DNA of 64,000 bases from Felis catus (Eukaryota), in assembly GCF_018350175.1 (NCBI RefSeq), contig NC_058368.1:5146001-5210000 (forward strand). The letters are read 5' to 3'. Made by a program: the position numbers and the translations under genes. The notes beneath the pieces were generated by a model. That model was not told where the DNA came from and did not search any database. It saw only the letters and a list, made by a program, of their open reading frames with translations. Positions 1-32,577 of the stretch are shown piece by piece. Numbering within the stretch: position 1 is the stretch's first letter; every line of letters starts with the position of its first letter.

Positions 1-672
1 AGCTTTTTGGTTTGAGGTAGTCTCACCTGTTTATTGTTTTGCTTTTTGTTGCCTTTGCTTTTAATGTCAAATTCAAAAAAATTCATCACCAAGACCAATG
101 TCAAAGAGCCTACTGCCTATGTTTTCTTCTAGGTGTTTTATTGTTTCAGGTCTTACATTCAGATCTGTAATCCACTTTGATTTAATTTTTTGTGTATGAT
201 ATAAGATAGTGGTCCAGTTCCACTTTTTGTGTGTGTGGTTGTCCAGTTTTCCCAACACCGTTTATTGAAGAGACTTCCCCTTCCCCATCATATATTTTTG
301 GCTTTTTCTTTTTGTCGTAAATTAATTGACCATGTATGCCTAGGTTTATTTCTGGGCTCTCTTTTCTGTTCCGTTGGACTATGTGTCTGTTTTATGCTAA
401 TGCTATACTGTTTTGATTACTATGGCTTTGTAATACAGTTTGAAATCAGGAATTATGATGCCTCCAGCTTTGTTCTTGTTTCTCAAGGTAGCTTTGGCTA
501 TTTGGGGTCCTCTGTGGTTCCATACAAATTTTAGAATTGTTTTTTCCTATTTCTGTGAAAAATGCCATTGGGATTTTGCTAGAGCTTGCACTGAATCTGT
601 AGATTGCTTTGGGAAATACGGACGTTTTAACAATATTAATTCTTCCAATTCATGAGCATGCTATATCTTTCT
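1..672 (-). mobile_element. LINE-1 ORF2 fragment
   Basis: Minus-strand peptide [25 protein letters not shown] is typical of the L1 ORF2p C-terminal region. Confidence 0.9.
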
Positions 673-829
673 ATGACTTCCTTCTTGCCAAGATGTTCAG
701 AGATGCCTATGTGTGCATGCACGTGGGTGAGGGGATATTAGTTGTCACAATAACTGGGGACCAGGGATGCTCAACATTTTCCAATATACAATATGTCAGT
801 AGAAGCTGTGCTAGAAAACACTGGTGCAA

Positions 830-1465
830 AGACACAGGAGGTGAACTGAGACACCATTCCTGCTCTCCGACTAAGAAATGAGGGATACTTGCATCAGGCT
901 GGGGCACTGTGGGTGATGAGGAAGCTTGATGATTCCGTGTATATTTTGAAGCTGGAGTTGACAGGACTTGTGGACCGATGGAATATGAGGGGAAGACTAA
1001 GAGAAGAATGAAAGGTGACTTAAGGATTTGGGGAAAAACGGAGTTGACGTTCCTTGGAAGGGCAAGGTTGAGGGACCGGTGGGGGAGAAGGAGCGGCAGA
1101 ATCACAGGTGCGGTCAGCTATTGTAAGTTTGAGACACCTCCGGACATACCAGTGGGCATCTCGTAGTAGGCAGATGAAAAGAGGCATCTGAAAAGAGATT
1201 CTTGAGGGGGAGATTTAAATTTTGGAGTTTTACTAGGCCAGGTGATTAACAAAAGAGGGAGTTAGAAAAGGGAGAAGCCGTGGGGCTTTCCAACAAAAAA
1301 AAAGTCAGAGTGATGAGCAGGAGACAGCCAAGGAGACTTAGGAAAACCGTCCAGTGAATTAGAAGGAGAAAGAAGGTAACATCGAAGGCAGAGGAAATCA
1401 CTAGTCACCTTTGGCAGCATGGTTGGGTGCAACGTCGGGGAGGAAGATCTGCCTGGAGTGGGGTC
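830..1465 (-). mobile_element. LINE-2 fragment
   Basis: Purine-rich antisense L2 motifs (gtaagtttgagacacctccggacataccagtgg). Confidence 0.7.
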
Positions 1466-1769
1466 ACCGGGAGGGGGGAGATTCCCAGCCTTCCCCTGAT
1501 AGCACGTCCTCCCTGCTTAGTACAAATATAACCTCTGGACAGAACACAAAAACACTACTTGCGGATGTTGAAAAATATGCAACCGAAGGCAGCTGTCGAA
1601 CAGGGGCCAGTTTCCTTTTTCTTTTAATTTTCGTCTTTTTTCTCAATGCTTTGCCCCCAGGGCAGGCTCTACTAGCTTCTCAGTGCATTTCAGGAGACTA
1701 AAACTCCAGTAGAAACGTCCCAGTCTTTCTGGCCAGAGGATTCAGGTAAAGGAGGCCCACGAACTGGAA

Positions 1770-1979
1770 AGAGAGAGTGTGTGTGTTAGCCTGGTGAGAG
1801 CATGTGGGCAGGGGAGTGGCAGAAAGAGAGGGAGAGAGAGAGAATCCCAAGTAGGCTCCACGCTGTCAGCGCAGAGCCCGATGTGGGGCAGGATCCCACG
1901 ATCCTTGAGATGGTGACCTGAGCGAAACCAAGAGTCAGACGCTTCACCGCTTCACCCACGGAGCCACCCAGGCGCTCCC
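1770..1979 (-). mobile_element. Can-SINE (older)
   Basis: (GA)n region through gagccacccaggcgctcc. Confidence 0.85.
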
Positions 1980-4190
1980 AAATTTACCTTCCTACTGTCA
2001 GTGTTTGTGAGGTTCTGTTTTTCTGCATCCACACTAGAAACGATAATGAGAGATTCCTTAATTTTTGCTGGTCTAATTGGTATTAAACGGTATCTGTGAT
2101 GGTTTCAATCTTTACTAAATGACTAATAAGGTTGAGAATATTTTCATATGTTTATGGGCCATTCATATTTTTCTTTCCAGTTAAATATGTGACATCTTTT
2201 GCCCATTTGTTTTCCTATTGGGTTGTTTACCTTTTTCTTATTAGTTCATAAATTGTTAACTGTTCATTCTTTGTTGGTTAAATAAGTAACAAATGTTTAA
2301 TTACGGTTCATGGCTTGTCTTTTTCATCTAGAGTGTCTTTTGATGAGTGGAAGTTCTTACTCTTAATGTAGTTAAAAGTATTCATTATTTTCTTTTATGA
2401 TTTTATGGATCTTTGGGGGGGGTGTTTAAAAAAAATTTCCCTACTTAGAAGTCATAACAATACTTGTTCTTTCCACCTGAAGCTGACTCATGAGTGGTGT
2501 GAGAAACAATTTCATTTTTTTTATATGGAAATTCAGCACCATTTATGGAATAATCTATTATTTTCCCAGAGGCTTCCAGAGTGGAACCCGGCACAGGTTA
2601 AGTTTCACATACGTGCGTGCCTCTTTCTCACTATTCTGTTCCACTGGTCTATTTATCTCTCCCAGTATCAATTCTGTATTGACTTGTTATAGAAACTAAA
2701 TCACAAACTTAATTGTTATAACTTTATAATATATCTAGTAGGTTAATTCTATTTTGTTCTTTCTTTTGGACTATGTTGTTTATTCTTGGCCCTTTTCTAG
2801 GAAGACGAACATCTGCTTTTCAAGTTTCATGGAAATTCCTGTTGGAAACTTGCTTTAAATTCCATTGACTTTATGGATTAATTTATGCATAATTATATCA
2901 TATAACACTGAATTTTTCCATCAATGAGCATGGTATGAGGTTCCATTTTTGGGGGACTTTTTAATGTCTTTTAATAAAGCTTTATAACTTTTTCCCATAA
3001 TAGGATTTGCACTCTCTCTATTTGTATAATGAATTTATATTCAGCAAACTTGCTAAACCCTTATTCTAATAATTTAATTGTATATGTGTTACACATTTCT
3101 ACCTTGACAGTCATATCCTGTGCAAATAATCCATTTTGTTTCTTCCTCTGCAGTCCTTTGATCTTTCACCTGGTTTTATTCTCTTACCCTCCTGGCTGGG
3201 TGCACTGGATAATGTTAAATAGGAGGGGGAATGATAGTGTTCTTGTCTTTTTCCCGATCAGTATTTCACCATTAAAGTTTTATTTTTTTTAAGATTCTCT
3301 TTATCTTTATTTAAGATATTATTCAAAGATTTTTTTTAAAGATTCTCTTTATCTAGGTAAGCAAATTCCCTTGTGTACATTAAAAAAAAAATCAATAGGT
3401 ATTGAATTTCTTCCTTTTTCCGCATCCATTGAGATGAGAAAGATTTTCTCCTTTAATATGTTAATGCACTAAATTTCATGTATTTATTTTCTATTAAACT
3501 ACCTTTGCGTTCACAGGATAAACCAAACTTGGTCATAATGTGTATTACCTTTTCTTATAAAGTACCTCCGTGTGTGTGCATGCACATGTGTGTGTCTGTC
3601 TCTGTATCTTTCTCTCCACTCTCCCCATCCCACTATTTTATTAGTCTTTTGAAGGCATAAACTGTTGACTTTGTTGATACTTTGCATCCTGTCTTTTTTT
3701 TCCTATTTCATTAATTTCTGTTCTTATCTCTGGGCTCTTCTCTTTTCTTTGAGCTTACTCTGTTGCTCTTTTCCTAATTTCTAAAAATGGACATTTAGCT
3801 AATTACATTTTTGGTTATTTTTCATTTCTTGTTTTTTAAACATAAACATGAGGTCTCTAAATTTTCTTCCTGTGTCAATTTGGGATTATCCCACAAGTTT
3901 TGATAATTTTTATTAATGTTCAGTCCTAAGTATTTCTTGTCCAGCATGCATTCTTTGTCTCTACATTTCCGACCATATCCTTTAAAACTAAAATTTGAAA
4001 ATTTTATTTTTATTTATTTTATTATTTATTTATTTATTTATTTATTTATTATTATTAATGTTATTTATTCTTTAAAATTAAAATCAAATTTTTAAATTTA
4101 AAAATAAAAGTTTTATTTACATCGTTTATATCTTCTATGTTTTTGTACATTTATTTGTTTGCTTTCGGTACACTTGACCTATCGACAATG
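1980..4190 (-). mobile_element. Old LINE-1 (L1M-type) ORF2 region
   Basis: T-rich degenerate antisense L1 motifs (ttttgcccattt, cagcaccatttat, ccaaacttggtcat). Confidence 0.75.
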
Positions 4191-4199
4191 AAATGATGA

Positions 4200-4680
4200 G
4201 CAGTTACACAGCACTTGCTAAACACTGGGTGATGTTTCGGGCTGTTGGCATTAGTTATTAGGGAATTATTTTATTTTATTTTATTATTATTATTTTTTAA
4301 CGTTTATGTATTTTTGAGACAGAGAGAGAGACAGAGCATGAACGGGGGCGAGGCAGAGAGAGAGGGAGACACAGAATGGGAAGGAGGCTCCAGGCTCTGA
4401 GCCATCAGCCCAGAGCCCGAGGCGGGGCTCAAACTCATGAACCACGAGATTGTGACCTGAGCTGAAGTCAGACGCTTAACCGACTGAGCCACCCAGGCGC
4501 CCCTAGGGAATTATTTTAATCATCCTTTAAGGTGAATACTATCATTACCTTCATTTTACCTATGAGGAAATTGAAAGTAAATAAGTAATTTGTCCAAGAT
4601 CGCACAGCTAATGAGTACCAGAATAAGGAATCATACCTGACACTTTGGTTGCACAATGCATGCTCTTAACTGTTATACTA
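4200..4680 (-). mobile_element. MIR, split by a Can-SINE
   Basis: cattttacctatgaggaaattga...ccaagatcgcacagcta core. Confidence 0.75.
4274..4503 (-). mobile_element. Can-SINE (SINEC_Fc)
   Basis: Full length, TSD tagggaattatttta. Confidence 0.95.
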
Positions 4681-5464
4681 TGTGTCAATAACTCTGGTAT
4701 TCAAATCCCATATTACTGATGTATCTGTCATTTTCACACTGAAGTTCTATCAAGTTTTCATTATACACATTAGGGGTATTATGTTAGGTAAACTGAATCT
4801 TTTATCATTAGGCAGAACCCTCTTACCTCCAGTAATATTACTATTATGTTTTGTCTCTTATTAACATGGTCACTCCTGCCTTCTGACTATATCAGCATGA
4901 TGTAACCTTTCCATCTTTTGCTTTCAAACCTTTGGTGTCCTTATATTTTTGGCATGTCTCTTATAAATAGCAGTTAGCTTAATCATTAATTTTCATTTTC
5001 ATTTTTATTGGTATATGTGTATCTTATAGATTCAGATACTTAGTGCTTTTCAATATCTTTATTCTGTAGGAATTTTGTAATTAAAAAATTCCCCTTTCAC
5101 GAAACTGAGAGTTGTTAAATTTTCACTGGAAGGACCTCTTAAAATATGTTTGTTCTGCCAGGACTCTTTGAAGGGGAAGAAACACACAGACACACACACT
5201 CAAGCCCCTATCTGATTTTAACTTACTGGGTATGCTACATTTGGTTAAGTTTCATCAAATCTCTCCATAAAACTTTCAGAGGCAAAAAAAATTCAGTAAA
5301 ATTTTCAGAGGCAAAAAAATTCATATATCAATCCCATCAGGACTTGGAAAGTGTCACCTCACCCAGTTTCATTGGAAAATCATAATTAAACCTTCAGCTT
5401 CATTTGTAGCCTAGCCAAAAATAACACAAATATCCTTTTAGTGGCACATCCATTTGCTTTTCTT

Positions 5465-5850
5465 TTTAAATTTTATTTTACTTAATTTTTTTTACCATGA
5501 TAAGTTTATGTTACTTTTTTTTTTTAAATCTTGATAAGTGTACGTTTAATTCCCATCCCCTGTTTCTCCCATGCCCCCACCGACCTCCCCTCTGGTAACT
5601 CTCTGAACTCTATAGTCAAGAGTCTTATTTCTTGATTTGCCACTTTCTCCTCCTGTTTTTTTTTTTTTTCCTTTGCTTGTCTTTTTTGTTTTTTAAACTC
5701 CACATATGAGTGAAATCATATAGTATTTGTCTTTCTCTGACTTATTTCGCTTATCATTATACTCTGTAGATCCAGCCATGTTGTTGCAAATCACAAGATT
5801 TCATTCTTTTTTTATGGTTGAATATTCCACTGTATATAAGTACCACATCC
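5465..5850 (-). mobile_element. Carnivore LINE-1 3' end (older)
   Basis: ccacatatgagtgaaatcatatagtatttgtctttc 3' UTR motif. Confidence 0.85.
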
Positions 5851-6660
5851 TCTTCTTTTTTAAAATGCAATTTATTGTCAAATTGGCTTCCATACAACAC
5901 CCAGTGCTCATCCCAACAAGTGTGCTCCTCAATGCCCATCACTCATTTTCCCTCTCCCCCAGCCCCCCCCCCCCCATCCTTAGTTTGTTCTCTATATTTA
6001 AGAGTCTCTTGTGGTTTGCCTCCCTCCATCTCTGTTTGTATTTCTCCCCCTTCCCTTCCCCCATGGTCTCAAGATCCACATTTGAGTGAAAACATATGAT
6101 ATCTGTCCTTCTCTGATCCACGTTGCTGCAAATGGCATGATTTCATTCTTTCTTATTGCCAAGTAGTATTCCATTGTATATATAAACCCCATCTTCTTTA
6201 TCTATTTATCAGTTGATGGACATTTAGGCTCTTTCCATAATTTGGCTATTGTTGAAAGCGCTGCTGTAATTGAGGGATCAGAAAAATGGCGACCCCCCAG
6301 TCTGTCCTTTATGGACCAGGTGTTCCAAATCACTCTGTTCAAGCCGTCCTCACTGTGCCATGGGCACAAGTGAGGTGATTTGTCCTGCTCTCCCGACTCC
6401 CATGCCCTGGTGCTTGGCTGGGATTCAAACTCCTGCTCCATGAGCCCTGGTACTGGGGGAGTGCTGCCCCCACGCCACCCGATATATGGTCTCTGGCTGG
6501 CAGGCAGTCTTTGTCTTTTGAGCAGATAGAACCCCTCTTCTTACAGCACTCCAGGGAGGGTATCACTTTCTCCCACTGTGGACCGCACCCCAAACCTAGC
6601 CATGGAGCCTGGGGCTGGCTCCCCTCCTCTCTAGGTGCACGATCAGGGCAGCCGGTCTGG
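5851..6660 (-). mobile_element. Younger felid L1, internally deleted (3' end fused to 5' UTR-like segment)
   Basis: 3' end matches the L1 at 27427-28258; ORF2 tail ALSTIAKLWKEPKCPSTDK; abrupt switch to GC-rich sequence at ~6270. Confidence 0.75.
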
Positions 6661-8945
6661 ATCTCCTTGGGTTGATTTGGTTCCGGGCACTCTGTGCTTC
6701 CTGGGTGTGGTTTTCTGTTTCCTTCCCCAAATTCAGGAAGTTCTTAGCGATTATTTCTTCAAATAAATTTTCTGCCCTCTTTTCTCTCTCTTCTCCTTCT
6801 GCGATCCCTATGACGCTAATGTTAGTACATTTTTTGGTGTTACTGTGTTTCCTAAGTCTATTTTCATTTTTAATGTTTTCTTCTCGCTGCTGTTCAGCCT
6901 GATTGCTTTCTAGTACTCTGTTTTCCAAGGTGCTGATCCATTCCTCTGCTTCCTCAAATCTACTATTCATTCCATCTAGTGTATTTTAAATGTTTTTTAT
7001 TGAGTTCTTCATCCCTGATTGGTTCTTTCTTATGTTTTCTCTTTGTTAAGGGTCTCACTGAGGTCTTCCCCTGTATTTTTATGACTATTGCCTTAAAGTG
7101 TCTATCAGGAATATTACTTAGCTCTGTTAGTTAGCTCTCTTGTGTGATTTTGTCCTGTTTTTTTCATTTGGGACGTATGCCTTTGCCTCCCATTTTGTCT
7201 CTCTGTATCTCTTTCTACGTGTTAGGAAAGTCAGCTATGTCTCTTGTTCTTAAAAGTAGTGGCCTTATGAAAAGGTCCTGTAGTGCCCTGCAGTGCAATG
7301 TTCCCTGCTCACCAGAACCTCCCGTTTCGAGGGTGTCCTCTCTATGTGTTGCATTCCTCCTACTGTCGTGACCGAGTTGCATTCGCCTTCAGTCCAGTCA
7401 TGTGCGATGGATCTCTTTGTCTGGTACGGGCAGGGTTTGGCCCCTGTGTTGTGAGTTGGCTAGTCTGGGGCCATCCTGGGCTTGAGTTGAGTCAGAGCAG
7501 GCGTTTGCTAGAGATAAGGCAGCACTGAACTGCAGAGCCCTTTCCCTGTGTTGGGAAGCTTTTGTCGGTGGGCTGGGCCTGCATTCAGACCAGATGAATG
7601 GCCCCTACCCCCTGCTGGGGCTGCTGTCAGACTGACCCGTGTGGTTATCTTTTCCTCTCCCCGGGTAGGAGTCACTTTGAGGTTGTGTTGGTGACTGCGG
7701 GGGCTGCCTGCCAGGCTTACGGCATTGCTTTGGATGGGCTCTTGCCGAGGGCTTTCTGGAGGGGGCAGGTCTGCAGAAGGTGCGGGTGGGTAGTGGTGTT
7801 AGCAAAGTTTGTGCAGGTCTGCTGTGGGAGAGGATGCGGAGCTTGGGGAAGACTTCCTAAAGCTGTAGCTGCAGGACTGGAGGTAGTGAGTCCACAGGAG
7901 AACGCAAGGGCAGAGAAAATGGCGCTAGCCAGGTTTGGATAGGTCTGCTGTGGCAGAGGGCCTCGAGGCAAGGCCTGGCTGGGGGGGGGGGGTGTCTGAA
8001 GGTCATGGGGGTGGAGCACACCGTCAGCAAGTTAAGCGGTGGGTGTGGGTGCTGTCCTAGTTTCTGAAGGTGTCCCTGTGCCTAGACTGAGGGGCAGCGA
8101 AGGGAAATGGCAGCTGCCAGCAATTTTGTTCTTGGAGAAGCGGGCCAATGATCCCCGTGCCCCCAGTACGCACCCTGAGATTAGTAAACGAACGTCCCTT
8201 CCATATCCCCCGGGGTGTTTTTCAAAATCCTGCTTCTGTGTTATATCTCCATGAGGCTGTTTGTTGTGTTGTCTCTCTCTTTTTTTTAATTTTTTTTTTT
8301 TTTTGAAGGAGAGAGAGAGACAGAGCATGAGCGGGGCAGGGGCAGAGAGAGAGGGAGACACAGACTCCGAAGCAGGCTCAGGGCTCCGAGCTGTGGGCAC
8401 AGAGCCCGACGCGGGGCTCGAACCCACAGACCGCGAGATCATGACCTGAGCTGAAGTCGGACGCTCAACCAACTGAGCCACCCAGGCGCCCCTGTTGTCT
8501 CTTTAAGGGTGGGGACTCAGTTTCCCCTCGTCCTCCCAGCAACCCCAGAGCCAAGCCCACTGATTTTTAACATTCCACGTATTAAGCCCCGCTGGTTGTA
8601 AGAACTCAAAAAATTATGTCTCTGGTTTTCAGGATTTGTCTTCCCCATGCAGGTTCCTTGCACCCGGGGTGCCTAGTTTGAAGGTCTGTTCCTTTCCTCC
8701 CTCCAGGCCTCCGGCATCACTTGCTCTCAGGGATGGTCACATGGGTCCATTTAGCTCTGGACCATGTCTCTTCCCTTTCGACCCTCTTCCATGTGGCCTC
8801 TTGTCTAAATTTAGCTGTAGAGGGTCTGTTCTACCAGTCTTCGGGTCATATTCTGGATTATTTACACCGATGGGGATATTATCTAGTTGTATCTACGGGA
8901 CAAGGTGAGCTTAGGGTCCTCCTACTCTGACATCTTTCTCAGAAG
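6661..8945 (-). mobile_element. Carnivore LINE-1 5' UTR and ORF1 N-terminal half
   Basis: ORF1p peptide EEAEEWISTLE...NLFEEIIAKNFLNLGKE...INPRRS, followed by GC-rich 5' UTR. Confidence 0.9.
8280..8492 (-). mobile_element. Can-SINE inside L1 5' UTR
   Basis: Full length, TSD tgttgtctct. Confidence 0.92.
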
Positions 8946-9134
8946 TCCTTTACAGGTCTTTTAAACGAGAAAACAGTTGAACGTAGCTCTAGAAATATTT
9001 CTTTAAAAATATTTAAAAACTATTTTCCATCTATTCATTTTCTCAGCGTTCTTTTTCTGGAACCTCTATTAATCAGATTAGTTTTCTAATTAGCTATCCT
9101 TTCTCTCTTATTTCTCTAAATGCCTGGCTGCCGG

Positions 9135-9305
9135 GTGTTGTGTGCACCAAATATGCAGATGTGTCTGTGTGTGTGTTCGGGTCTGTGTCACAGTTTGTAT
9201 CTGTGCTTGTGAGTGTACGTACATGTATGCACGTGTCCTTGTATGGACGTGTCCCACGCATGGGAGTGTGTGTGCACACATTTTTGTGCGTGTGCATGTT
9301 TGTGT
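9135..9305. repeat. Degenerate (TG)n-rich tract
   Basis: Read directly. Confidence 0.8.
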
Positions 9306-10161
9306 AGACTATTTGGGGCGTCACAAAGTTTGTTTGCAGGCGTTCTTTCGACCTGCCCTCCCTCATGCTCATGGCTCTGAGATCTGAACCTTTCCCGGGT
9401 ACTGGGGGGGGTGGGGGAGACAGGCTCTGTCTTTGACTCTGTCCCATTCTATGCTCACCTGGAGGCTGTCGCTTCTTCCAGCCTGCAGAGCCTTGTCCAG
9501 GGTGTAAAAGATAACGTTCAGAAACAGACGTAAGTTCTCTACGGGAATCTAGATAGAATAAAGATCCACACCATAGGTGGCATTTCCAATGAGTGTGAAA
9601 AAAATGGCTAATTGAAGAAATGGTGTGGGCATTCCTGTTCGCCATTTAGAAGACAACAAAGCGGGACCCCCTGCCTTGTTCCGGAAAACAACATAAACCC
9701 CAGATGGGATGAAGAGTCAAATATGAAAAAGGGAACACACAAAAAATACCAGAATGGATCATTAAAAAAAAGTGTCACCTGGAGATAAAGAATGCCTTTG
9801 AAAAATGTCACGAAATCCAGAAAGCTGAAGGGCAAAACTGATAAGCAAGCTGCCTTCCTGGACATTACGTTTCTCGGGGCTGGCTGACCTCGCTCCCCAT
9901 GATTCTTTCCCTCCTTGAATGCTAGTGGTCCTGCGACTGTCCTGCACGGGCTAGCCGCTTCAATCCACACTCCTTTCACGGAGAGTCCCTGCAGGCTGGG
10001 CTGCTGACCACACCTTGGCCACTCAGACTCTGTCTGAGAAGTGTGAATCTGGAGCCGGGGTCCACGGGGTCAAAAGCGGAGCCCTTCCCAAGGCTCTGAT
10101 GCTCCCAGTTGCCTGCGGTTATGTGAGGGCCCATGTCCTTTCATGAATTCTGTACCTATTT

Positions 10162-10362
10162 GGGGCGCCTGGGTTGCTCAGTCCATTAAGCGACCGACTC
10201 TTGATCTCACCTCAGGTGATGACCTCACGGTTCACGGGTTCTAGCCCCGAGTTGGGCTCCACCCTGGCAGTGCGCAGCCTGCTTGGGATTCTTTCTCTCC
10301 TCTCTCTCTGCCCCTCCCCCCGCTCTTTCTCTCTTTCAAAATAAGTAAATAAACATTAAAAA
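10162..10362 (+). mobile_element. Can-SINE (older)
   Basis: ggggcgcctgggttgctcagtc head, CT region, A-tail. Confidence 0.9.
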
Positions 10363-10759
10363 CATTGTATTTCTGTTTAAGTTAGCCAGAGCCAATGTTT
10401 ATGACTTACTCTCAGACAACTCTGGCAAATGGAGAGCTGGATGGGGTGGGGGTTGGGGGAGCATCCCTGCCTTGCTCCTCCCCACTCCTCCCATAAAGCA
10501 TTCTAAACCAGTTGAAACAAAAGTAACAAAGTGGGAAAATATTTACAGTAAGAATAAATAAATAAAGAACATTAAGGGCCAATTCACAAAATGAAAACAC
10601 TACCAATAAATACCTGAGACAATGGTTAGTCTTTCTAATGAGCAAAGGTATGCAGACTTTAAAAAAAAATCAAGTATTTAAAACATCTATTAGGCTTTCC
10701 TGGTGGCAGAGTAAGCCACAGGCTGTATTTTCCAAGGCACAGTTGATTTTTCTTTCAAG

Positions 10760-10860
10760 TTTCTTTCTTTCAAGTAGGCTCCACACCCAGCGTGGGGCTT
10801 GAACTCACGACCCTGAGATCAAGAGCCGATGCTCTATCACCTGAGCCAGCCAGGTGCCCC
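10760..10860 (-). mobile_element. Short tRNA-Lys-like Can-SINE
   Basis: gaccctgagatcaagag...ctgagccagccaggtgcccc. Confidence 0.8.
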
Positions 10861-10949
10861 TCAAGGTAATCTTTTCTAAACTGCAAATCTCGATTTCCTT
10901 ACCTTCTGGACGTTTGGTTCTGTTTCCCAATGCCTTGTCTATTGACCGG

Positions 10950-12300
10950 CTGGCGGCAGGCTTGCCCCTTGCGTCCAAGCTGCACCCGCTGCACCGAGGA
11001 GAGCTGGCCTGAGTTGGGAACGCCATGGGGCCAGGTTGGCCTGAGGATCCCTGCGCTTCTGCTCTGGGCTCTCAGCCAGCCGCGACCCCCGCCCCAGACC
11101 TCTCCCCCCCTTCCTCCCCCTGGTTCCCCCCCAGACCCCTCCCCCTGGCTCCCCCCACCCCTCCCCCTGGCCCACCCTCAGACCCCTCCCCCTGGTTCCG
11201 CCCCCAGACCCCTCCCCCTGGCTCCCCACCCAGACCCCTCCTCCTGGCTCCCCTCCCCCCACCCGTCTCACACCCCCCCCCACTGCACACGGACCGGTCC
11301 GCGTCTCAGAGCCGCATCCTCCCCCTGGTGCTGCCGGCGTGGCTCCGTATCTGGAGCTTTACCGGAGCCCACCGTGCACCTCTGTAAAATTGCCGGCACT
11401 GCCTGGGGGCCGCGGGTAAGGAAGGAGTGGCAGCGGAGTGCGACGGAGTGTGCGACTGCCAGGTGGCAGCGGCGGCGGCTGGGGGGCAGACGCGCAGAGG
11501 GAAGGAGGAACAGGAGCCCCAGGGCAACGCGGGTGGTGGGGGGAGGCAGAGGGCTGGCGCGTGGAAGGGCTGGCTTGGGCCGGCGTGGCCGTGCGTCGGT
11601 CCCTGCACCCGCGTACGTGCGCACGCAGGGGGGGGGGGTGAGGACGCGCGCGGCCTGCCGAGGTGTCCGAGCGTGCAGGCGTGGGAGTGGGGAGCCCCCG
11701 AGCGCGGCGGCGGAGCTCCAGGGAGAGGCAGGGCTCGGGGCTGCAGGCGGCGTCCAGGGCGCGGGGGCGGGGTGGGTGGGAGGAAGGGAAGGGGCTCGGT
11801 CTCTTTGCCCTAACTCCTGCCTTTTCTCTCCTGCCTCCCCCTGCTCTTCTGCACGTACCCTGCCTGTGCTCGTTTCCTCTCACGGCTCAGGACACGCGCA
11901 GGAGGACCCCAGGCCTGGTCGCCCCCTTGAACACGGCGGGCTGTTGCCGGGAGAGCCGCCCGGGGACGCGAGCACGTCCTGTGGATGAGGGGTGCCGGCA
12001 CCCGGGCACGCGCAATGGTTACCTACGCTTAGGGGCCGGATTCCACGTTCCGCCCGTGAAACGCGCGCCCCGCTCTCCAGGACGGGAGGGGATGTTTACT
12101 AGGCACATTGGACAGACTGGTTTTCCAAAGTGAAGTCATAACTGAAATGCTGTATGTTGCCGTTGTGCTCGGTGTGCTCGGATGCGCACTGGTGAGGCTT
12201 CATCTGTGCGCGCAGCGCGCCTCCATTATCACAGAAGCGGGGCACAGCGCGGTGGGGAGATCTCGGACACCTCCAGCCGAGGCCACCTGCCACTCCCCAC
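10950..12300. promoter_or_regulatory. Second (orphan) CpG island
   Basis: About 1.3 kb of GC-rich, CpG-dense non-TE sequence 11 kb upstream of ATP8A2. Confidence 0.8.
11090..11262. repeat. C-rich minisatellite, ~6 imperfect 25-30 bp units (AGACCCCTCCCCCTGGCTCCCC)
   Basis: Repeated CCCTCCCCCTGG cores read directly. Confidence 0.85.
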
Positions 12301-12744
12301 CTTCCAGGGCCCTCCGGACTCCATCTTCTCTCCGTCCCAGCTTTCCCACCTGGCTCCTGTCTGGGGGCAGGCCTGCAGAGAGCTGATTCCTGTCCTTCCC
12401 CACGGGGACAGTGGCTTGGGGTGGCCTGAGCGCACTCTTGTTACTCTGCCAAAATGCAGCCTAAAGCATTCTGATGGTTAAATAATTCAGAAAACGTTCA
12501 TCTGTCTTTGCTGCTCCTGTGAAACTCAGATCAAGTAAGTAGAAAAGAGCAGGGGAAAAAAATGTTTAATGTGATGTGAACATTAATCTTTCTCAAGGAT
12601 CTGTAGCCCACAGAAATGATAAATCAGATAGCCAGCCAAATATTATATGTTAACTTCTCAAAATGTTGTCTTCAAGTTATGTTCATGCAAGTGATTCTCC
12701 AATATTCAGGAATCAGTTTGCCAAAAGGGTATTTTGGGGGGCTT

Positions 12745-13232
12745 TGATTATGTCAGTGAGGTCCCTCCATATTGTAACCTGTATTAATACTTTTTCATTG
12801 CTGAATAGTATTCCAGGGAAGGATATACCACATTTTCTGTATCCATTCAGCGGTGGATGGGTTATTTTCAATACGGGGCTATTATGAATCACACTTGTGT
12901 ACAAGTTTTTGTGTGGATGGATGTTTTCATTTTTCTTAGTGGATTTCTAGGAGCAAAATTGCTGGGTTTATAGGGTGAGTTTTACTTTTATTTTTTAAGT
13001 TTATTTATTTCTTTTGGGAGAGAGAGAGTAAGAGTACCAGTGTGAGCAGGGGAGGGGCGGGGAGAGAGAGGAAGAGGAAGAATCGCAAGCAGGCTCTGTG
13101 CTGTCAGTGGGCAGCCCAACTCCGGGCTGGATCCCATGAACCGTGAGGTCATGCCTGGAGCCGAAATCAAGAGGCGGACATTAACGGACTGAGCCACTCA
13201 GGATCCCCGTGTTTAACTTGTTAGGAAACTGC
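12745..13232 (-). mobile_element. Old L1 3' fragment with inserted Can-SINE (12984-13208)
   Basis: L1 3' antisense motifs (tatccattca, gctattatgaat) flank a SINE body. Confidence 0.8.
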
Positions 13233-13536
13233 TAAGGGAGATCAAGCATGGTTTTCAGGGAGGCTTCGTCTCATTGGTCAGCATGGTTTCTCAGGCCACT
13301 CCAGTGGTAGCAGGTGCAGCCTATGATATCGTTAGCCCTCGCCCTCCAAACCCTTGCAGTGGAGAGACGTCGGGTCATAAAAGATGACAAAGCAACAGAT
13401 GTTCATCTGATGAACTCCAGAATTCAGTCAACTCTGAGTTTTAACTCATATTCTGTAGGAGAGGGCATGTGTTCAAAGCTGTAATTACTTTTGGTAGTCT
13501 TTGGTCCGCAACTGCGGAAGACAATGTAGATACTTG

Positions 13537-13542
13537 ATTAAA
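13537..13542 (+). terminator. Candidate polyadenylation signal ATTAAA
   Basis: ATTAAA followed ~30 nt later by a GU-rich tract (tttgggtttgtgtt). Confidence 0.35.
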
Positions 13543-13679
13543 GTCTTCCATTCTGTTTATATAAAACTATGCTTTGGGTTTGTGTTACTATGACTGTCTA
13601 GAAACACTTTTCTTTTTTTTTTTTTTTTTGTGACTTCTCCTCTGTTGAAAAGACCAATTTGGAGGGTACGATAATTATG

Positions 13680-14763: not shown

Positions 14764-14971
14764 GGGGCGCCTGGGTGGCTCAGTCGGTTAAGCATCCGAC
14801 TTCGGCTCAGGTCATGATCTCGCGGTCCGTGGGTTCGAGCCCCGCGCCGGGCTCCGTGCTGACAGCTCGGAGCCTGGAGCCTGCTTTGGATTCTGTGTCT
14901 CCCTCTCTCTCTCTGCTCCTCCCCCGTTCATGCTCTCTCTCTGTCTCAAAAATAAATAAACATTAAAAAAA
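14764..14971 (+). mobile_element. Can-SINE
   Basis: Full length, TSD aaaaacattttaa. Confidence 0.93.
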
Positions 14972-20920: not shown

Positions 20921-22585
20921 GTAAGATTTAGGTCTGGATCCTGTAGTCAAACGCCATCCTTAACTAACTTCCCCAGAGAGATACCCGCCAGTCAGATCAG
21001 GGAAGTTAACCACGGCAGTCAATGAGATAACACAAGTTCAAGTGAGGCGCCCATCTATTGGCCCTCGTACCTACGACGTCATCTTCACAGTGGGCCAACT
21101 GGACTGTCTCAGCACTCTACAAAGTCGTCAGGACAGATTTGGTTATCGGAAGATACACACAAGAAGAAACAGAAGCACTCTCCCGACTTCATGATAGGGA
21201 TGCAGGAAATCAGGGGAAGGCACTGAGCCAGTCTGTGGTGGTCAAGGCAGTGGCCTCTATTCAACATACTCAGCTTCTTAAAAATTAAAAATAACTTCTA
21301 TCTACTCTTTCTTTTCCCACTTGGTTATGGGCAGAACATTTTTCATCTTAAAATTCGGAGTTGAAAAAAGCCCTATTTTTCACCTGAGTCCTCTCCAGCT
21401 CTGCTTAAGCTCTCAAGGGGGTTGTTCTGTGTAGGAAATTGAATCATCAGTGACAAAGTTTTTGACAGACTCTGCTGGGACGAAGTTGCTTCACGATCAC
21501 CCTCAGCAGCTAAGACCCACTGAGAAAACATCTTCCGCTCTGAAGCTCTCAACTCCAGAACCGAGAAAGTTCTCTTCTTCCTCAATACCATGCTGAAGAT
21601 TCACACTTCTTATCAGAAACACTTTTTTCCCCCCCTGAGGGCCCAGAATGGGCAGGCAGGGAATCCCACCTGAAGCTAAGGTTGCCAGTCTGTCCATCCC
21701 TTCTGCACGTTTTTCTGGGAAAATGCGGGGCAGAGGCTAGCCAGGAGGAGCTGGAGGGATGCCTGGCCTTTTCTCGTGGGGCACCGATTCTTTCTGCTCA
21801 ACTCTGTTCCTCTCCTGGTCCGTCCCCGGTATTTACGCTAAATTTAGTGTAATGATCACATCGATAAATAAACGCAAGGTCAGCCTCTCTTACAATCATG
21901 TTTCTCTTTTCACTCTGAGGTCGGAATTTCATCAGCTATTAAACATTCAGCCTTTCCCCCCTCTCTTTATGGAACTGTGCCCAGAAGGACCAAGTGCGGT
22001 TTGAACGCTGAGTAAAAACAGTAAGAAATGGATCAAGTGACCTTGGACAAATCACCTCACCTGCCACTGATTTTGTTTCCTATGGAAGGTGTGTCGGTGT
22101 GTGTGTGCGAGTGTGTGCGTGTGAGCTAAGCGAGATAAGTATTCGTAGGGGCTTCTCACAGTTTTAACGTGCCACTAACTAGAATTCTAGGCGGGCTGGG
22201 GGCCCGGAGTCTGGACACCCAGGTTTTCTGTTTTCCAGACCCTACACCTTAGAAGTACCTGCTCTTTGCAGCCGATCCCACCACAATGTACACAGAACAG
22301 AAACCGAGAGAAGCCGGCAGAGTCAGGAGTCCCGAACGATTCCCACGGGACAAGCGCACCACCTAACAAGGGACAGGTAAAAGAGGCAGCGGGCAGGGGC
22401 AGAAAAGGGCACCCTGAGGTGCGCTCGCGCCCCAGAGGAGCCCCCTAGCGCACCGCCCCGTCCCCCCACCCGTCCCCTCTCCGCCACCTAAGAGCCCCCC
22501 GTGCTGCGGAACGTTCCAGACTCTCCCCGGCCGAGGCCCGCTCCGCCTCCCGCCGGGCTCCCCGCCGGAGGGCCGGACCCCTCCC

Positions 22586-22587
<2 letters not shown>

Positions 22588-22617
<30 letters not shown>
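22588..22617 (+). repeat. (GCC)10 trinucleotide repeat
   Basis: Ten perfect GCC units read directly. Confidence 0.95.
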
Positions 22618-22619
<2 letters not shown>

Positions 22620-22750
22620 GCCAGCGAGGCCCGCAGCGGTGGCGTCCGCGGGCGCTGCCGCATTGGCCGGCGGCTGCGGCACGGACGGCGCAGCCTCCTC
22701 CTCCTCCTCCGCCGGCGGCCCCGCAGTCCGGCCCGGGAGCGCGCCCACCC

Positions 22751-22822
22751 ATGGCCCTCGGGCCGCCGTCCCTGCGCCCAAGCCCAGCGCGCAGCCTCCG
22801 CCGCTCGCCCGGGGCCGCCTAG
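22751..22822 (+). promoter_or_regulatory. Upstream ORF (23 aa, MALGPPSLRPSPARSLRRSPGAA*) in the probable ATP8A2 5' UTR
   Basis: cacccATGG at 22751, TAG ending 22822, 17 nt before the main ATG. The transcription start is unknown. Confidence 0.55.
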
Positions 22823-22839
22823 CCCCCGAGCGGGGCGCG

Positions 22840-22915
22840 ATGCCGAACGCCTCCCGCCTGGACAGAGCGCTCAGGATGTCCCTGCCCCGAAGGTCGCGGA
22901 TCGGCTCGTCCGTTG
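22840..22915 (+). CDS. ATP8A2: ATP8A2 coding exon 1 (phospholipid-transporting P4-ATPase IB), phase-1 end; intron 1 runs past the window end
   Basis: Translates [25 protein letters not shown](G), matching the human N-terminus as I recall it ([26 protein letters not shown]). 76 coding nt, then a GTTG|gtgaga donor at 22916, inside a CpG island. Confidence 0.93.
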
Positions 22916-23086
22916 GTGAGAGGGGAGGGGCGCGCGGCGGGGAGGGTCGGCGGGGCGGGGGAGGGGGGAGGGAGGCGGGCGCGCGGAGGGGAGCCGCCGC
23001 CCCGCCCTCCTCCCGCCTCCCGCCGCCGGTGCTCGCACCTGGGGGTGGGGGTGGGGCGCGCCCGCGCCGCCGGGAGGGCCGCACGC

Positions 23087-23128
23087 GGGGCGAGGGGCGA
23101 GGGGCGAGGGGCGAGGGGCGAGGGGCGA
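23087..23128 (+). repeat. (GGGGCGA)6 heptamer tandem repeat
   Basis: Six perfect units read directly, 170 nt into intron 1. Confidence 0.95.
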
Positions 23129-24169
23129 GGGCGTCGGGGACCCCGCTCCGCCCGCGGGCCGGGCTGCGTGTGCGCGCGCTCGGGGTGTGTGCGTGTGCGC
23201 CGCCACGCGCGTGCCCGGCCGCCCCTACACGGGGGGTTCCCCGTCCCCCGCCGGGTGGGCGCGGAGACCGTCGGGCATCGGCGGGGCCGGCCTCGCCCCG
23301 CGCGGTGTTTGCTGTAGGGCCCCGGGGAGCCGAAGGGCCCCCACGAACGTTTGTCGCCACCTGGGCCCTGGGGACTCGCGCGCGCACCCGGCGGCGACGC
23401 ACCGGCTCTCGACCACCCGCACGGCCACCGCACACGCCCCGCTGCGCTCGGGCGCCCGGGCGTTGGGGCGCCTAATCCTCTAAAGCCCGACACCCCGGTG
23501 CTTCCATCCCGGCACCCCCGGCCCCTCCCGTCCGGACGCTCGCATTTTGTTTCTTATAGACTATATTTAGAAAGCAAAGTCGCGTTAAGCTGGATGTTAC
23601 GTGATTATGATGCACGATGGGTTACCTAGACACCCCCCCCCCCCGCCCTAATGAGAAATCTCTTACCATTTCAGGGCGCCCTGCACGTTTGTAGGTGGAT
23701 CTTTGATTGGAGGAAGGGACAGGGTCTGCACTTTGGGGCTGGGGGCGTTTGGAATTTCTGTGCAGTTTTTGTCGCTTGTTTTGAGAAAGTAGGCTTCTAA
23801 AAATAAGTGACTTTCCCATTTCTCTGGTTGAGTCATGTGAGGTGGAAACGGCAGACCAGTGTTTCCACGTTATCGTCCGGGCGCCTTCAGACTGGTTGGA
23901 GGAGAAGCCCAGTGCGAGAGGATCGCTGGCCGAGACTGGGCAGTGCCGAGTGCGGGCTGAGGCAGGGAGCCCCGCTGGGAGGGGACAGCGGCCATCCGGG
24001 GGCCGGATGGTACCTGTGACAGTGCTTAGGTGGAGCGGAACGGGGCGGAGGGGCGGGGAGAGCGGGCAGGGCCGCCGCCATATGTTTGAAGGCAGAGGCA
24101 ATAGCATTGTTCCTGATACGGATTGAGGCTTCAGTAAACAGAGCATCAAAGGTGGCTGGGAGGAGAAAG

Positions 24170-24345
24170 AGAGTGGAAGAAGGCGCCACTGTGTGACGGT
24201 GCCGTCGCACAGAGCCCCGCTCTTGCGCGAGTCCTGCGTTGGCTTTAATGCTGTGTTGTCGCTGTCTCGGAGGCCTTAATGGGTTTTGAATGAGGGGCCT
24301 GCAGTTTGATTTTGCAGCGGGCCCTGCAAGTTACGGAGCCAGGGT
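24170..24345. mobile_element. MER45A-like hAT MITE
   Basis: gtcgcacagagccccg...tttgcagcgggccctgcaagttacggagcc. Confidence 0.7.
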
Positions 24346-24899: not shown

Positions 24900-26150
24900 G
24901 CAGAACTGGCACTATCACCACCCATTCTGCAGAAACTCTTTTTGGTACTTTACTCCTTCACGTGGAAGAGGTTCTTCAAAGAACCTTTTCTTCTTTTCTT
25001 TTCTCTTTGCTTTTCTTTTCTTTTCATTTCAAACAAGTCTTTTTTTTTTTTTAGCGTTTATTTATTTTGAGAGTGAGAGAGACAGAGTGCGAGCAGGGGA
25101 GGGGGAGAGAGAGAGAGAAACAGAATCCGAAGGAGGCTCCAGGCTCCGAGCTGTCAGCACAGAGCCCAACGTGGGGCTGGAACCCACAAACCACAAGCTC
25201 CTGACCTGAGCTGAAGTCGGATGCTCAACCGACTGAGCCACCCAGGCGCCCCTCGAAGAACCTTTTCTAAAATGAAATGAAACAAACCAACAACCTGTTA
25301 GAATTTGGGTTAAATTTGCATTAAGTTTATAGATTAATCTGGAGCGAGTAGACATTTAAAAAATGTCCCTTTAACCATAAACATGGTATTCTCATCATTT
25401 ATATATGTCTTTTATGTCTTAAAAATTTTTTTTTTATGTTTATTTATTTTTGAGAGAGACAGAGTGTAGGTGGGGGAGAGGCAGAGAGAGGGAGACACAG
25501 AATGTGAAGTGGGCTCTAGGCTCCGAGCTGTCAGTACAGAGCCCAATGCGGGGCTTGAACTCACCAGCTGTGAGATCATGCCCTGAGTCGGAGGCTTAAC
25601 CGACTGAGCCACCCAGGTGCCCCTGGGTCTTTTGTTAAAGTGTCGCAATTTTCTCCATAAATTTCTATGCATTTTAAAAGGTTTATTGCAAGATAATTCT
25701 GTTCCGAGAATAAATGAGCTTATTCAAAAATTACATTTTTAATTGGTTGTTGCTGACGTCTAGGAAACAAGTTTTAATGTTGACTGTTGTATCAACAACC
25801 TAGTGAACTGTCATAAATTTTTGAAGCTTAGGGTTGCTTTAATTTTGTGTGTGTAGACGTTATCTGCAAATATTAATTTCATTTCTTCCTTCATAATTGT
25901 TATAACTCATATGTTTTTCTTATTTGATTACATTCATTAGTACTGCCAATTAAAGTTTGACCAGAAGGGCCATTCTTGCTCTGCTCTTAGAACATTAATG
26001 CTTCCAGAACTCTCTGTTGAGGAATGGTGCTGGAGTCCGCAGCTGTTCTGTAGGACTCTAAGGAAGCACTCTGTACTTCCTACTCAGTACTTTAGGGCAG
26101 AGGCGGGTTTATTGTGCATTTTAAGACACTGGTCAGGGACCAGCAGAATG
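24900..26150 (-). mobile_element. Old L1 with two Can-SINEs (25040-25252, 25415-25623)
   Basis: Degenerate antisense ORF2 motifs and two minus-strand SINE bodies. Confidence 0.75.
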
Positions 26151-32360: not shown

Positions 32361-32577
32361 GGGGCGCCTGGGTGGCTCAGTTGGTTGAGCATCTGACTTC
32401 AGCTCAGGTCATGATCTCGCAGTTTGTGAGTTCGAGCCCCGCGTCAGGCTCTGTGCTGACAATTCAGAGCCTGGAGCCTGCTTCCAAGTCTGTGTCTCCA
32501 TCTCTCTCTGCCTCTCCCCTGCTGATGCTCTGCCTCTCTCTCTGTCAAAAATAAATACACTTAAAAAAAAAAAAAAG
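32361..32577 (+). mobile_element. Can-SINE at the end of a MIR remnant
   Basis: TSD aagtgcatgcctt. Confidence 0.93.

Follow-up and report, generated by a model that had tools for sequence, protein, structure and literature searches.

The window examined here is a stretch of 64,000 nucleotides from Felis catus (contig NC_058368.1, forward strand), in which the first exon of ATP8A2 and, upstream of it on the same strand, an orphan CpG island are found (Table 1). The earlier note had placed such an island ahead of ATP8A2, and the composition bears this out. Short motifs of the N-terminus of human ATP8A2 were not found, and exon 1 was located by reading the sequence; its peptide is 100% identical to residues 1–25 of the Panthera models for phospholipid-transporting ATPase IB. 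Some 10.3 kb separate the 3′ edge of the island from the start codon of ATP8A2. On this island the same note had proposed an unrecognised protein-coding gene of five exons.

Table 1. Features around the orphan island and at the start of ATP8A2 (window coordinates; a slash marks the exon end, numbers after sites are log-odds scores)
Feature	Position	Strand	Remarks
Candidate divergent first exon, 41 codons	10903–11026	-	ATG from the same CCATGG palindrome as ATG 11025
Proposed exon 1	11025–11034	+	ATG in gccATGG, then weak donor CAG/GTTGGC, 0.53
C-rich tandem repeat, unit 26 nt, ~6.8 copies	11102–11264	.	Fills most of intron 1
Orphan CpG island, ~1.25 kb	11250–12500	.	GC 0.59–0.74, observed/expected CpG 0.71–0.83 (11251–12500)
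Proposed exon 2	11310–11415	+	Weak acceptor, -2.77; donor CGG/GTAAGG, 5.2, 99.4th percentile
GC-skew flip	11350–11400 (~11375)	.	Putative centre of divergent initiation
Second strong donor, CTG/GTGAGG	12147–12191	+	5.34; follows a 15-codon ATG frame
Proposed exon 3	12491–12534	+	Acceptor -3.36; strong donor CAA/GTAAGT, 5.4, 99.6th percentile
Proposed exon 4	12614–12728	+	Acceptor -3.83, the weakest; weak donor AGG/GTATTT, -0.44
L1-like fragment	~12797–12975	.	One 76% L1-like match; in last intron of the chain
tRNA-derived SINE	12976–13219	.	26 look-alikes in the window; in last intron of the chain
Proposed exon 5	13459–13537	+	Good acceptor, 5.21, 98.4th percentile; ends in TGA
ATTAAA hexamer and GT-rich tract	13537–13542, ~13573–13586	+	First plus-strand hexamer after 10800
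ATP8A2 exon 1, coding part	22840–22915	+	Donor TTG/GTGAGA, 3.26

The letters of the proposed chain are as described. GT follows each of the first four segments and AG precedes each of the last four, the joined segments give 354 nt without an internal stop, and the translation is identical to the 117-residue string given before. The start codon stands in the context gccATGG, the TGA at 13535–13537 shares a base with ATTAAA, and the best 15-nt window of the tract behind this hexamer has 14 of 15 positions G or T. An equally GT-rich tract stands behind just 14 of the 92 plus-strand hexamers in the window. Since the stop codon overlaps the poly(A) hexamer, the 3′ UTR of the chain would be just ~20–40 nt.

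The L1-like piece and the SINE both fall inside the last intron, as had been noted. That the exons are free of transposable elements holds insofar as no look-alike of them occurs elsewhere in the window; old repeats are beyond what this comparison can exclude. Rfam gave four tRNA-like SINE matches in the window, none of them within 10–14 kb.

The open frames of the single segments carry different weight. The stop-free plus-strand frames across the exon 2 region run to 124, 124 and 372 codons, and exon 2 itself is open in two of three frames and holds no ATG; its open frame therefore says little. Exon 4 is open in one frame only, at 32% GC. The ATG at 11025 also opens an unspliced, proline-rich frame of 120 codons (363 nt), which extends to 11387.

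Splice sites were scored with a log-odds matrix, a score of at least 5 being called strong; the scores are approximate, because this matrix rests on general consensus frequencies. Five of the eight sites of the chain (three of four acceptors, two of four donors) are weak, and only donors 11415 and 12534 and acceptor 13459 are strong. The acceptors at 11310, 12491 and 12614 rank between the 71st and 77th percentile among all 9014 AGs, with 16–20 sites per kb per strand matching or beating them; the one at 12491 is indeed pyrimidine-poor, and two acceptors upstream of it, 12308 (5.44) and 12341 (6.28), outscore it. For donors 11034 and 12728 there are 5–8 equal or better sites per kb per strand (~5 for 11034 alone). 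The acceptor at 12607 scores 0.65, against -3.83 for its neighbour at 12614, and its use ends the frame early, as the earlier note had itself pointed out, leaving an ORF of 68 residues. If no site may score below 2, ATG 11025 gives no better frame than the unspliced one of 363 nt, and transcript models limited to strong sites contain no ORF besides this proline-rich frame.

The chance rate of such chains was estimated by allowing any site at least as good as the weakest in the proposed chain, up to five exons and up to 2.6 kb, and by counting the ATGs that reach a coding sequence of at least 354 nt. On both strands of the window, 569 of 1856 ATGs (31%) do so, 407 of them having a poly(A) hexamer no more than 60 nt from the stop. 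Of the Kozak-type ATGs, 88 of 248 do so, and 56 of 248 with a hexamer near the stop. When the locus was shuffled in 100-nt blocks, 141 of 300 shuffles (47%) succeeded, 90 of the 300 with a hexamer near the stop. From ATG 11025 alone there are 46,744 legal chains, 9,968 of which end near a hexamer. Given the freedom of site choice, the ORF of the chain is not longer than chance provides; the earlier note had itself cautioned that hand-picked sites may fit by chance. Most likely, the 117-codon frame arises from weak splice sites that happen to join in frame and would not be coding sequence.

Searches with the parts of the chain agree with the earlier impression that no known protein family is present. 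The protein searches took contiguous window translations, in pieces of 30–46 residues. In this form the stretches of exons 2, 4 and 5 found no protein match, seven stretches hit no Pfam family, and the stretch 13445–13534 had no match among 1.84 billion representatives. The stretch 12607–12744 had no match in the protein, Pfam or Atlas searches. The Atlas gave no usable match for the pieces, with a recognition of 1318, where 2300 is reached by 91 of 100 known-family proteins. The missing matches are weak evidence, as the pieces are short and a young gene would lack relatives. The suggestion that the locus is the 3′ half of a decayed gene found no support in these tests, which for that question are weak (short exon pieces, Pfam only). 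The exact 22-mer at the 12534 donor occurs in no metagenome contig. A protein-pattern scan with the 372-codon frame of the island returned a single locus, with 40% identity over 43 residues; it was rejected as spurious because it does not resemble the window at the nucleotide level. In the region 1–10900, Pfam searches of 84 open frames with 55 codons or more returned just an L1 ORF1 fragment (6599–6985, minus strand) and one match below the cut-off, and a 183-codon minus-strand frame at 9097–9645 had no usable Atlas match (recognition 1034).

CpG islands are defined by a length above 200 bp, a GC content above 0.5 and an observed/expected CpG ratio above 0.6. The 500-nt windows of 11251–12500 have a GC content of 0.59–0.74 and a ratio of 0.71–0.83; the ATP8A2 island has a higher ratio, roughly 1.0. 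The sequence at 10751–11500 is GC-rich yet CpG-poor (0.36–0.47). At about 11375 the GC skew changes sign, from -0.55 to -0.74 over 11050–11299 to +0.19 to +0.48 over 11350–11799. According to PMC3787257, this pattern of skew accompanies co-oriented transcription where promoters lie in CpG islands.

In the 2 kb to either side of the flip, the outward strands carry seven strong donors and no poly(A) hexamer clusters, and the inward strands none and seven. This asymmetry (Fisher p = 6e-4) ranks first among 116 centres in the window, in a post hoc test that was devised with the sites known, with the approximate matrix and with a centre picked according to the skew. The promoter of ATP8A2, the one known in the window, comes only 10th–16th of 116 by this measure, and the true donor there (3.26) falls below the cut of 5, so the test is neither sensitive nor calibrated. 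On the plus strand, 11351–13536 contains four strong donors against a shuffle mean of 0.86 (300 shuffles, 1.7% of which reach four). The minus-strand enrichment alone is not significant (three donors against a mean of 1.25; 15% of shuffles reach three). The minus-strand donor AAG/GTAAGG at 10903 scores 7.36, and no minus-strand hexamer occurs before 8290; with sites of at least 3, the candidate on that strand reaches a two-exon frame of 579 nt, and 4% of 1587 ATGs do as well. PMC5204342 reports an enrichment of U1 motifs downstream of the start for lincRNAs and mRNAs alike; the donor signature is therefore no argument for coding.

Taken together, the locus is probably a chance frame on an orphan island that resembles a bidirectional promoter for non-coding RNA. 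The long non-coding RNA had been one of the options offered before, and it is the part we favour, on the basis of the sign change in GC skew and the uneven strand distribution of donors and poly(A) signals. RNA polymerase II would start divergently near the flip, at ~11.35–11.4 kb. Strong 5′ splice sites near the start, 11415, 12191 and 12534 on the plus strand and 10903 on the minus strand, would recruit U1 and shield the outgoing RNAs from early cleavage. The plus-strand RNA may stop as soon as it meets a usable poly(A) signal, the ATTAAA at 13537 with its GT-rich tract, or may continue. What results would be either a short non-coding RNA, whether spliced or not, or an upstream exon that is not translated. 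Good sites that could serve such a putative transcript are the donors at 11415 and 12534, the acceptor at 13459 and the ATTAAA at 13537. The activity of the island, its start points and its choice of sites are inferred from the sequence. Of 24 sequencing runs, 20 contain at least half of the words sampled from the 2.8-kb stretch with its introns; two of these 20 are on record as RNA (both metatranscriptomes), the kind of 12 is guessed and that of six is unrecorded. Neither expression nor splicing can be read from such word shares.

An unlikely alternative is that the island is an upstream promoter of ATP8A2 itself. Its first exon would be untranslated, would end at 11415, 12191 or 12534, and would be spliced to the 5′ UTR/exon 1 region of ATP8A2 or, outside the window, to exon 2. 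The island is on the ATP8A2 strand, about 10–11 kb upstream of exon 1, and its strong plus-strand donors are followed by 2.1 kb free of hexamers. Four tiger accessions (XP_042840547.1, XP_042840625.1, XP_042840669.1 and XP_042840691.1) share one identical isoform X1 sequence, which fits transcripts that differ in untranslated parts only, wherever the difference may lie, and the bear and mink ATP8A2 entries begin at an internal Met, 40 residues downstream. Against this, all 11 felid ATP8A2 entries examined begin with the exon 1 peptide at 22840, and thus none of them has a coding alternative first exon on the island; the ATG frame ending at 12191 can not replace exon 1 in frame, because it ends in phase 0 and exon 1 in phase 1. 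A good poly(A) signal, that at 13537, also stands between the island and ATP8A2. In the literature on an alternative ATP8A2 promoter nothing was relevant by title or start of abstract; searches for the region upstream of ATP8A2 returned nothing, and those for NUP58, ATP8A2 and lncRNA nothing relevant.

It is also quite unlikely that the island is no promoter at all, being a GC-rich and partly repeat-built element, for instance an orphan island of the Polycomb/CTCF type or a methylated relic, with no stable transcript and with all of its sites decoys. The C-rich tandem repeat on its left, with a low CpG ratio, and the observed/expected CpG ratio of the island, lower than that of the ATP8A2 island, are consistent with such an element. 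Yet no other place in the window has as strong a skew flip and donor/poly(A) asymmetry, which would be unexpected of inert DNA, though the test is post hoc.

That the chain is a true young or fast-evolving gene for a 117-residue protein we consider very improbable: its intact frame, good start context, two strong donors, strong last acceptor, plausible poly(A) signal and singly open exon 4 stand against the chance rates, the weak sites, the break of the frame by the better acceptor at 12607, the near absence of a 3′ UTR, the lack of protein matches with low Atlas recognition, and a start codon ~350 nt into the C-skewed side of the flip, possibly upstream of plus-strand initiation. The claim of an unrecognised five-exon protein-coding gene is thus not upheld. 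It is just as improbable that a spliced mRNA specific to felids or carnivores starts at the island and encodes a small de novo protein, be it the 117-residue chain or the unspliced 120-residue frame.

Among known systems, the locus resembles the orphan, bidirectional CpG-island promoters of lncRNAs and upstream antisense RNAs, whose principles are treated in PMC3787257 and PMC5204342. It shares with them a CpG-rich island away from annotated starts, a central skew flip, an enrichment of outgoing donors and a depletion of poly(A) hexamers. It differs in that its activity is putative and in that its GC-rich block is partly a CpG-poor tandem repeat. De novo or lineage-specific small genes are alike in their short ORF without homologues, low-complexity start, several exons and nearby CpG island, but the ORF of the present chain is indistinguishable from chance and needs five weak splice sites. 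The untranslated alternative first exons of large neuronal genes such as ATP8A2 are alike in strand, in a position ~10 kb upstream and in donors that follow a CpG island; however, none of the felid ATP8A2 isoforms examined takes a different N-terminus from the island.

GT/AG chains of ~120 codons, when built by hand, arise from about one third of the ATGs in mammalian DNA and therefore need the support of reads, conservation or site strength. If the ORF were true, it would be a lineage-specific new gene beside a neuronal flippase gene, but the evidence points against this. The island itself is an ordinary, possibly unannotated promoter-like element, which could matter for the regulation of ATP8A2.

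Two CpG islands are present in the window, which is felid DNA, and the earlier note was right to place its candidate gene on an orphan island upstream of ATP8A2, since ATP8A2 exon 1 has been identified and a separate island does lie upstream of it. The translation of exon 1 is 100% identical to the first 25–26 residues of ATP8A2 (phospholipid-transporting ATPase IB) in the lion, tiger and jaguar models. It is the sole ATP8A2 exon found in the window by tblastn with the 1209-residue tiger isoform, the other seven rows listed having E >= 0.59; thus 22.9–64 kb is ATP8A2 intron 1. A (CCG)11 run is located at nt 22586–22618, just 5′ of exon 1 in the likely 5′ UTR, and a GGGGCGA 7-nt repeat of 6.4 copies occupies nt 23087–23131 within intron 1. 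The bear and mink ATP8A2 entries begin at an internal Met 40 residues downstream.

Features of the two islands and scores of the splice sites in the proposed gene (approximate log-odds; donor, last exon base; acceptor, first exon base)
Feature	Position	Strand	Property
ATP8A2 exon 1, coding part	22840-22915	+	open frame, ATG to TTG/GTGAGA
ATP8A2 CpG island	~22250-24250		CpG observed/expected ~0.8-1.0
Orphan CpG island	~11250-12500		GC 0.59-0.74; CpG observed/expected 0.71-0.83
Candidate minus-strand first exon	10903-11026	-	ATG at 11026, sharing its CCATGG palindrome with ATG 11025; 41 open codons
Donor	11415	+	5.2; top 0.6%
Donor	12534	+	5.4; top 0.4%
Acceptor	13459	+	5.2; top 1.6%
Donor	11034	+	0.5; 5-8 equal or better per kb per strand
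Donor	12728	+	-0.4; 5-8 equal or better per kb per strand
Acceptor	11310	+	-2.8; 16-20 equal or better per kb per strand
Acceptor	12491	+	-3.4; 16-20 equal or better per kb per strand
Acceptor	12614	+	-3.8; 16-20 equal or better per kb per strand

The gene had been proposed to consist of five plus-strand exons (nt 11025–11034, 11310–11415, 12491–12534, 12614–12728 and 13459–13537). A script reproduced its coordinates, flanks, phases and residues; the joined segments give 354 nt and 117 codons, and the TGA overlaps the ATTAAA at 13537, with a GT-rich tract 3′ of this hexamer (putative poly(A) signal). The last intron holds a SINE (nt 12976–13219) and an L1-like piece, while nothing resembling the exons recurs elsewhere in the window. 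The 26 look-alikes of nt 12976–13219 are carnivore-type SINEs, as are four tRNA-like Rfam matches (nt 8403–8487, 14769–14853, 25163–25247 and 32366–32450), and nt 6599–6985 of the minus strand carry an L1 ORF1 fragment (Pfam Transposase_22, E = 1.5e-5). The first intron is mostly a C-rich 26-nt tandem repeat (nt 11102–11264, ~6.8 copies, 75–82% matches), with a G-rich block (nt 11400–11800) immediately to its right. Such C-rich/G-rich sequences are prone to form i-motif, G-quadruplex or R-loop structures.

Every GT (6695) and AG (9014) on either strand was scored with a log-odds matrix whose frequencies are general consensus values, so that the scores are approximate; on this scale the exon-1 donor of ATP8A2, a yardstick of a true donor, scores 3.26. 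Acceptors 12308 and 12341 score above 12491, and 12607 outscores 12614 (0.65 vs −3.83); use of 12607 leads to an early stop, as had been noted, and shortens the frame to 68 residues.

The longest spliced ORF buildable from each ATG was searched by dynamic programming, with sites at least as strong as the weakest in the proposed gene, no more than 5 exons, a minimum intron length of 70 nt and a span limited to 2.6 kb. A CDS of at least 354 nt was obtained from 569 of the 1856 ATGs on both strands (407 with a hexamer no more than 60 nt from the stop), from 88 of 248 Kozak-type ATGs (56 with the hexamer), and in 141 of 300 shuffles of the locus in 100-nt blocks (90 with the hexamer). Plus-strand ATGs outside both islands yield it at the same rate (31% of 807). 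ATG 11025 alone begins 46,744 chains that qualify (9,968 include a hexamer), and when all sites are required to score at least 2 its best frame is unspliced (363 nt). Long stop-free frames abound in the island region, with 124, 124 and 372 codons across the three plus-strand frames, and exon 2 itself is open in two of its three frames. Given the weak sites, the chance counts, the open frames and the better neighbouring acceptors, the 117-codon ORF is the expected yield of hand-picking; it is not above chance, and the proposal of an unrecognised protein-coding gene is unsupported.

Contiguous translations of the window were used as queries in protein searches. The exon-4 stretch (nt 12607–12744, 46 aa) had no match among proteins of 82–2000 residues, nor the exon-2 stretch (nt 11297–11416, 40 aa) among those of 71–2000 residues. 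As the database includes felid RefSeq models, ATP8A2 among them, neither stretch has a match among annotated felid proteins in these length ranges, which is weak evidence. The exon-5 stretch (30 aa) had no match among 1.84 billion representatives, Pfam gave no family for seven stretches, the Atlas no usable match (recognition low, 1318), and metagenome scans nothing usable.

The alternative of a lncRNA, also raised in the earlier note, is plausible, a promoter-like signature speaking in favor of this predicted transcript. GC skew changes from −0.55 to −0.74 at nt 11050–11299 to +0.19 to +0.48 at nt 11350–11799. CpG-island promoters are described as marked by GC skew co-oriented with transcription, a minus-strand partner giving negative skew upstream (PMC3787257). 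Strong donors (score at least 5) follow 11415, 12191, 12534 and 12974 on the plus strand, and 10903, 10211 and 9459 on the minus strand; the first hexamers are at 13537 on the plus strand past 10800, and at 8290 leftward on the minus strand. Within 2 kb of the skew flip near 11375, the outgoing strands carry 7 strong donors and no hexamer clusters, and the incoming strands 0 and 7 (Fisher p = 6e-4); the counts are 5/0 vs 0/4 within 1.5 kb (p = 0.008) and 7/2 vs 2/8 within 3 kb (p = 0.023). In this test, devised post hoc once the sites had been seen, the two centres nearest the island rank 1 and 2 among 116 at 500-nt spacing; the known ATP8A2 promoter ranks only 10th–16th. Against local dinucleotide shuffles, the plus strand has 4 donors vs 0.86 (1.7% of shuffles reach 4), and the minus strand 3 vs 1.25 (15% reach 3). 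Since U1-site enrichment is described as common to lincRNAs and mRNAs (PMC5204342), the signature argues for transcription, not coding.

For a plus-strand RNA, the first donor could be 11415 or 12191, with an internal exon from 12341 or 12308 to 12534, the last acceptor at 13459 and an end at the ATTAAA at 13537. If such an RNA started at the skew flip or to its right, ATG 11025 and the first proposed exon would be untranscribed on this strand. In the plus-strand models built from strong sites, no ORF was seen besides the unspliced proline-rich frame of 120 codons. On the minus strand, nt 10903–11026 may begin a divergent transcript as its first exon, and this segment equals or surpasses the candidate proposed in the note. 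Its donor, AAG/GTAAGG, is the strongest in the neighbourhood (7.36), with the next minus-strand hexamer at 8290. Joined to nt 9548–9094 it gives a 579-nt frame (sites at least 3) that 4% of ATGs equal, its best frames being equalled by only 3–4% of ATGs; Pfam and Atlas gave no protein support here either.

It is also possible that the island supplies an untranslated upstream exon of ATP8A2. One identical isoform X1 sequence stands under four tiger accessions, suggesting that their transcripts differ in untranslated parts only; however, the exon-1 N-terminus is kept in 11 of 11 felid ATP8A2 entries. Inside the island, nt 12147–12191 (plus strand) comprise an ATG, 15 hydrophobic codons and a strong donor, CTG/GTGAGG (5.34). 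This frame ends in phase 0 vs phase 1 for ATP8A2 exon 1, so that an in-frame replacement of exon 1 is impossible.

The finding is an ordinary one. Most likely, the orphan island is a promoter-like element of the bidirectional type, and such RNA as it may yield is non-coding.
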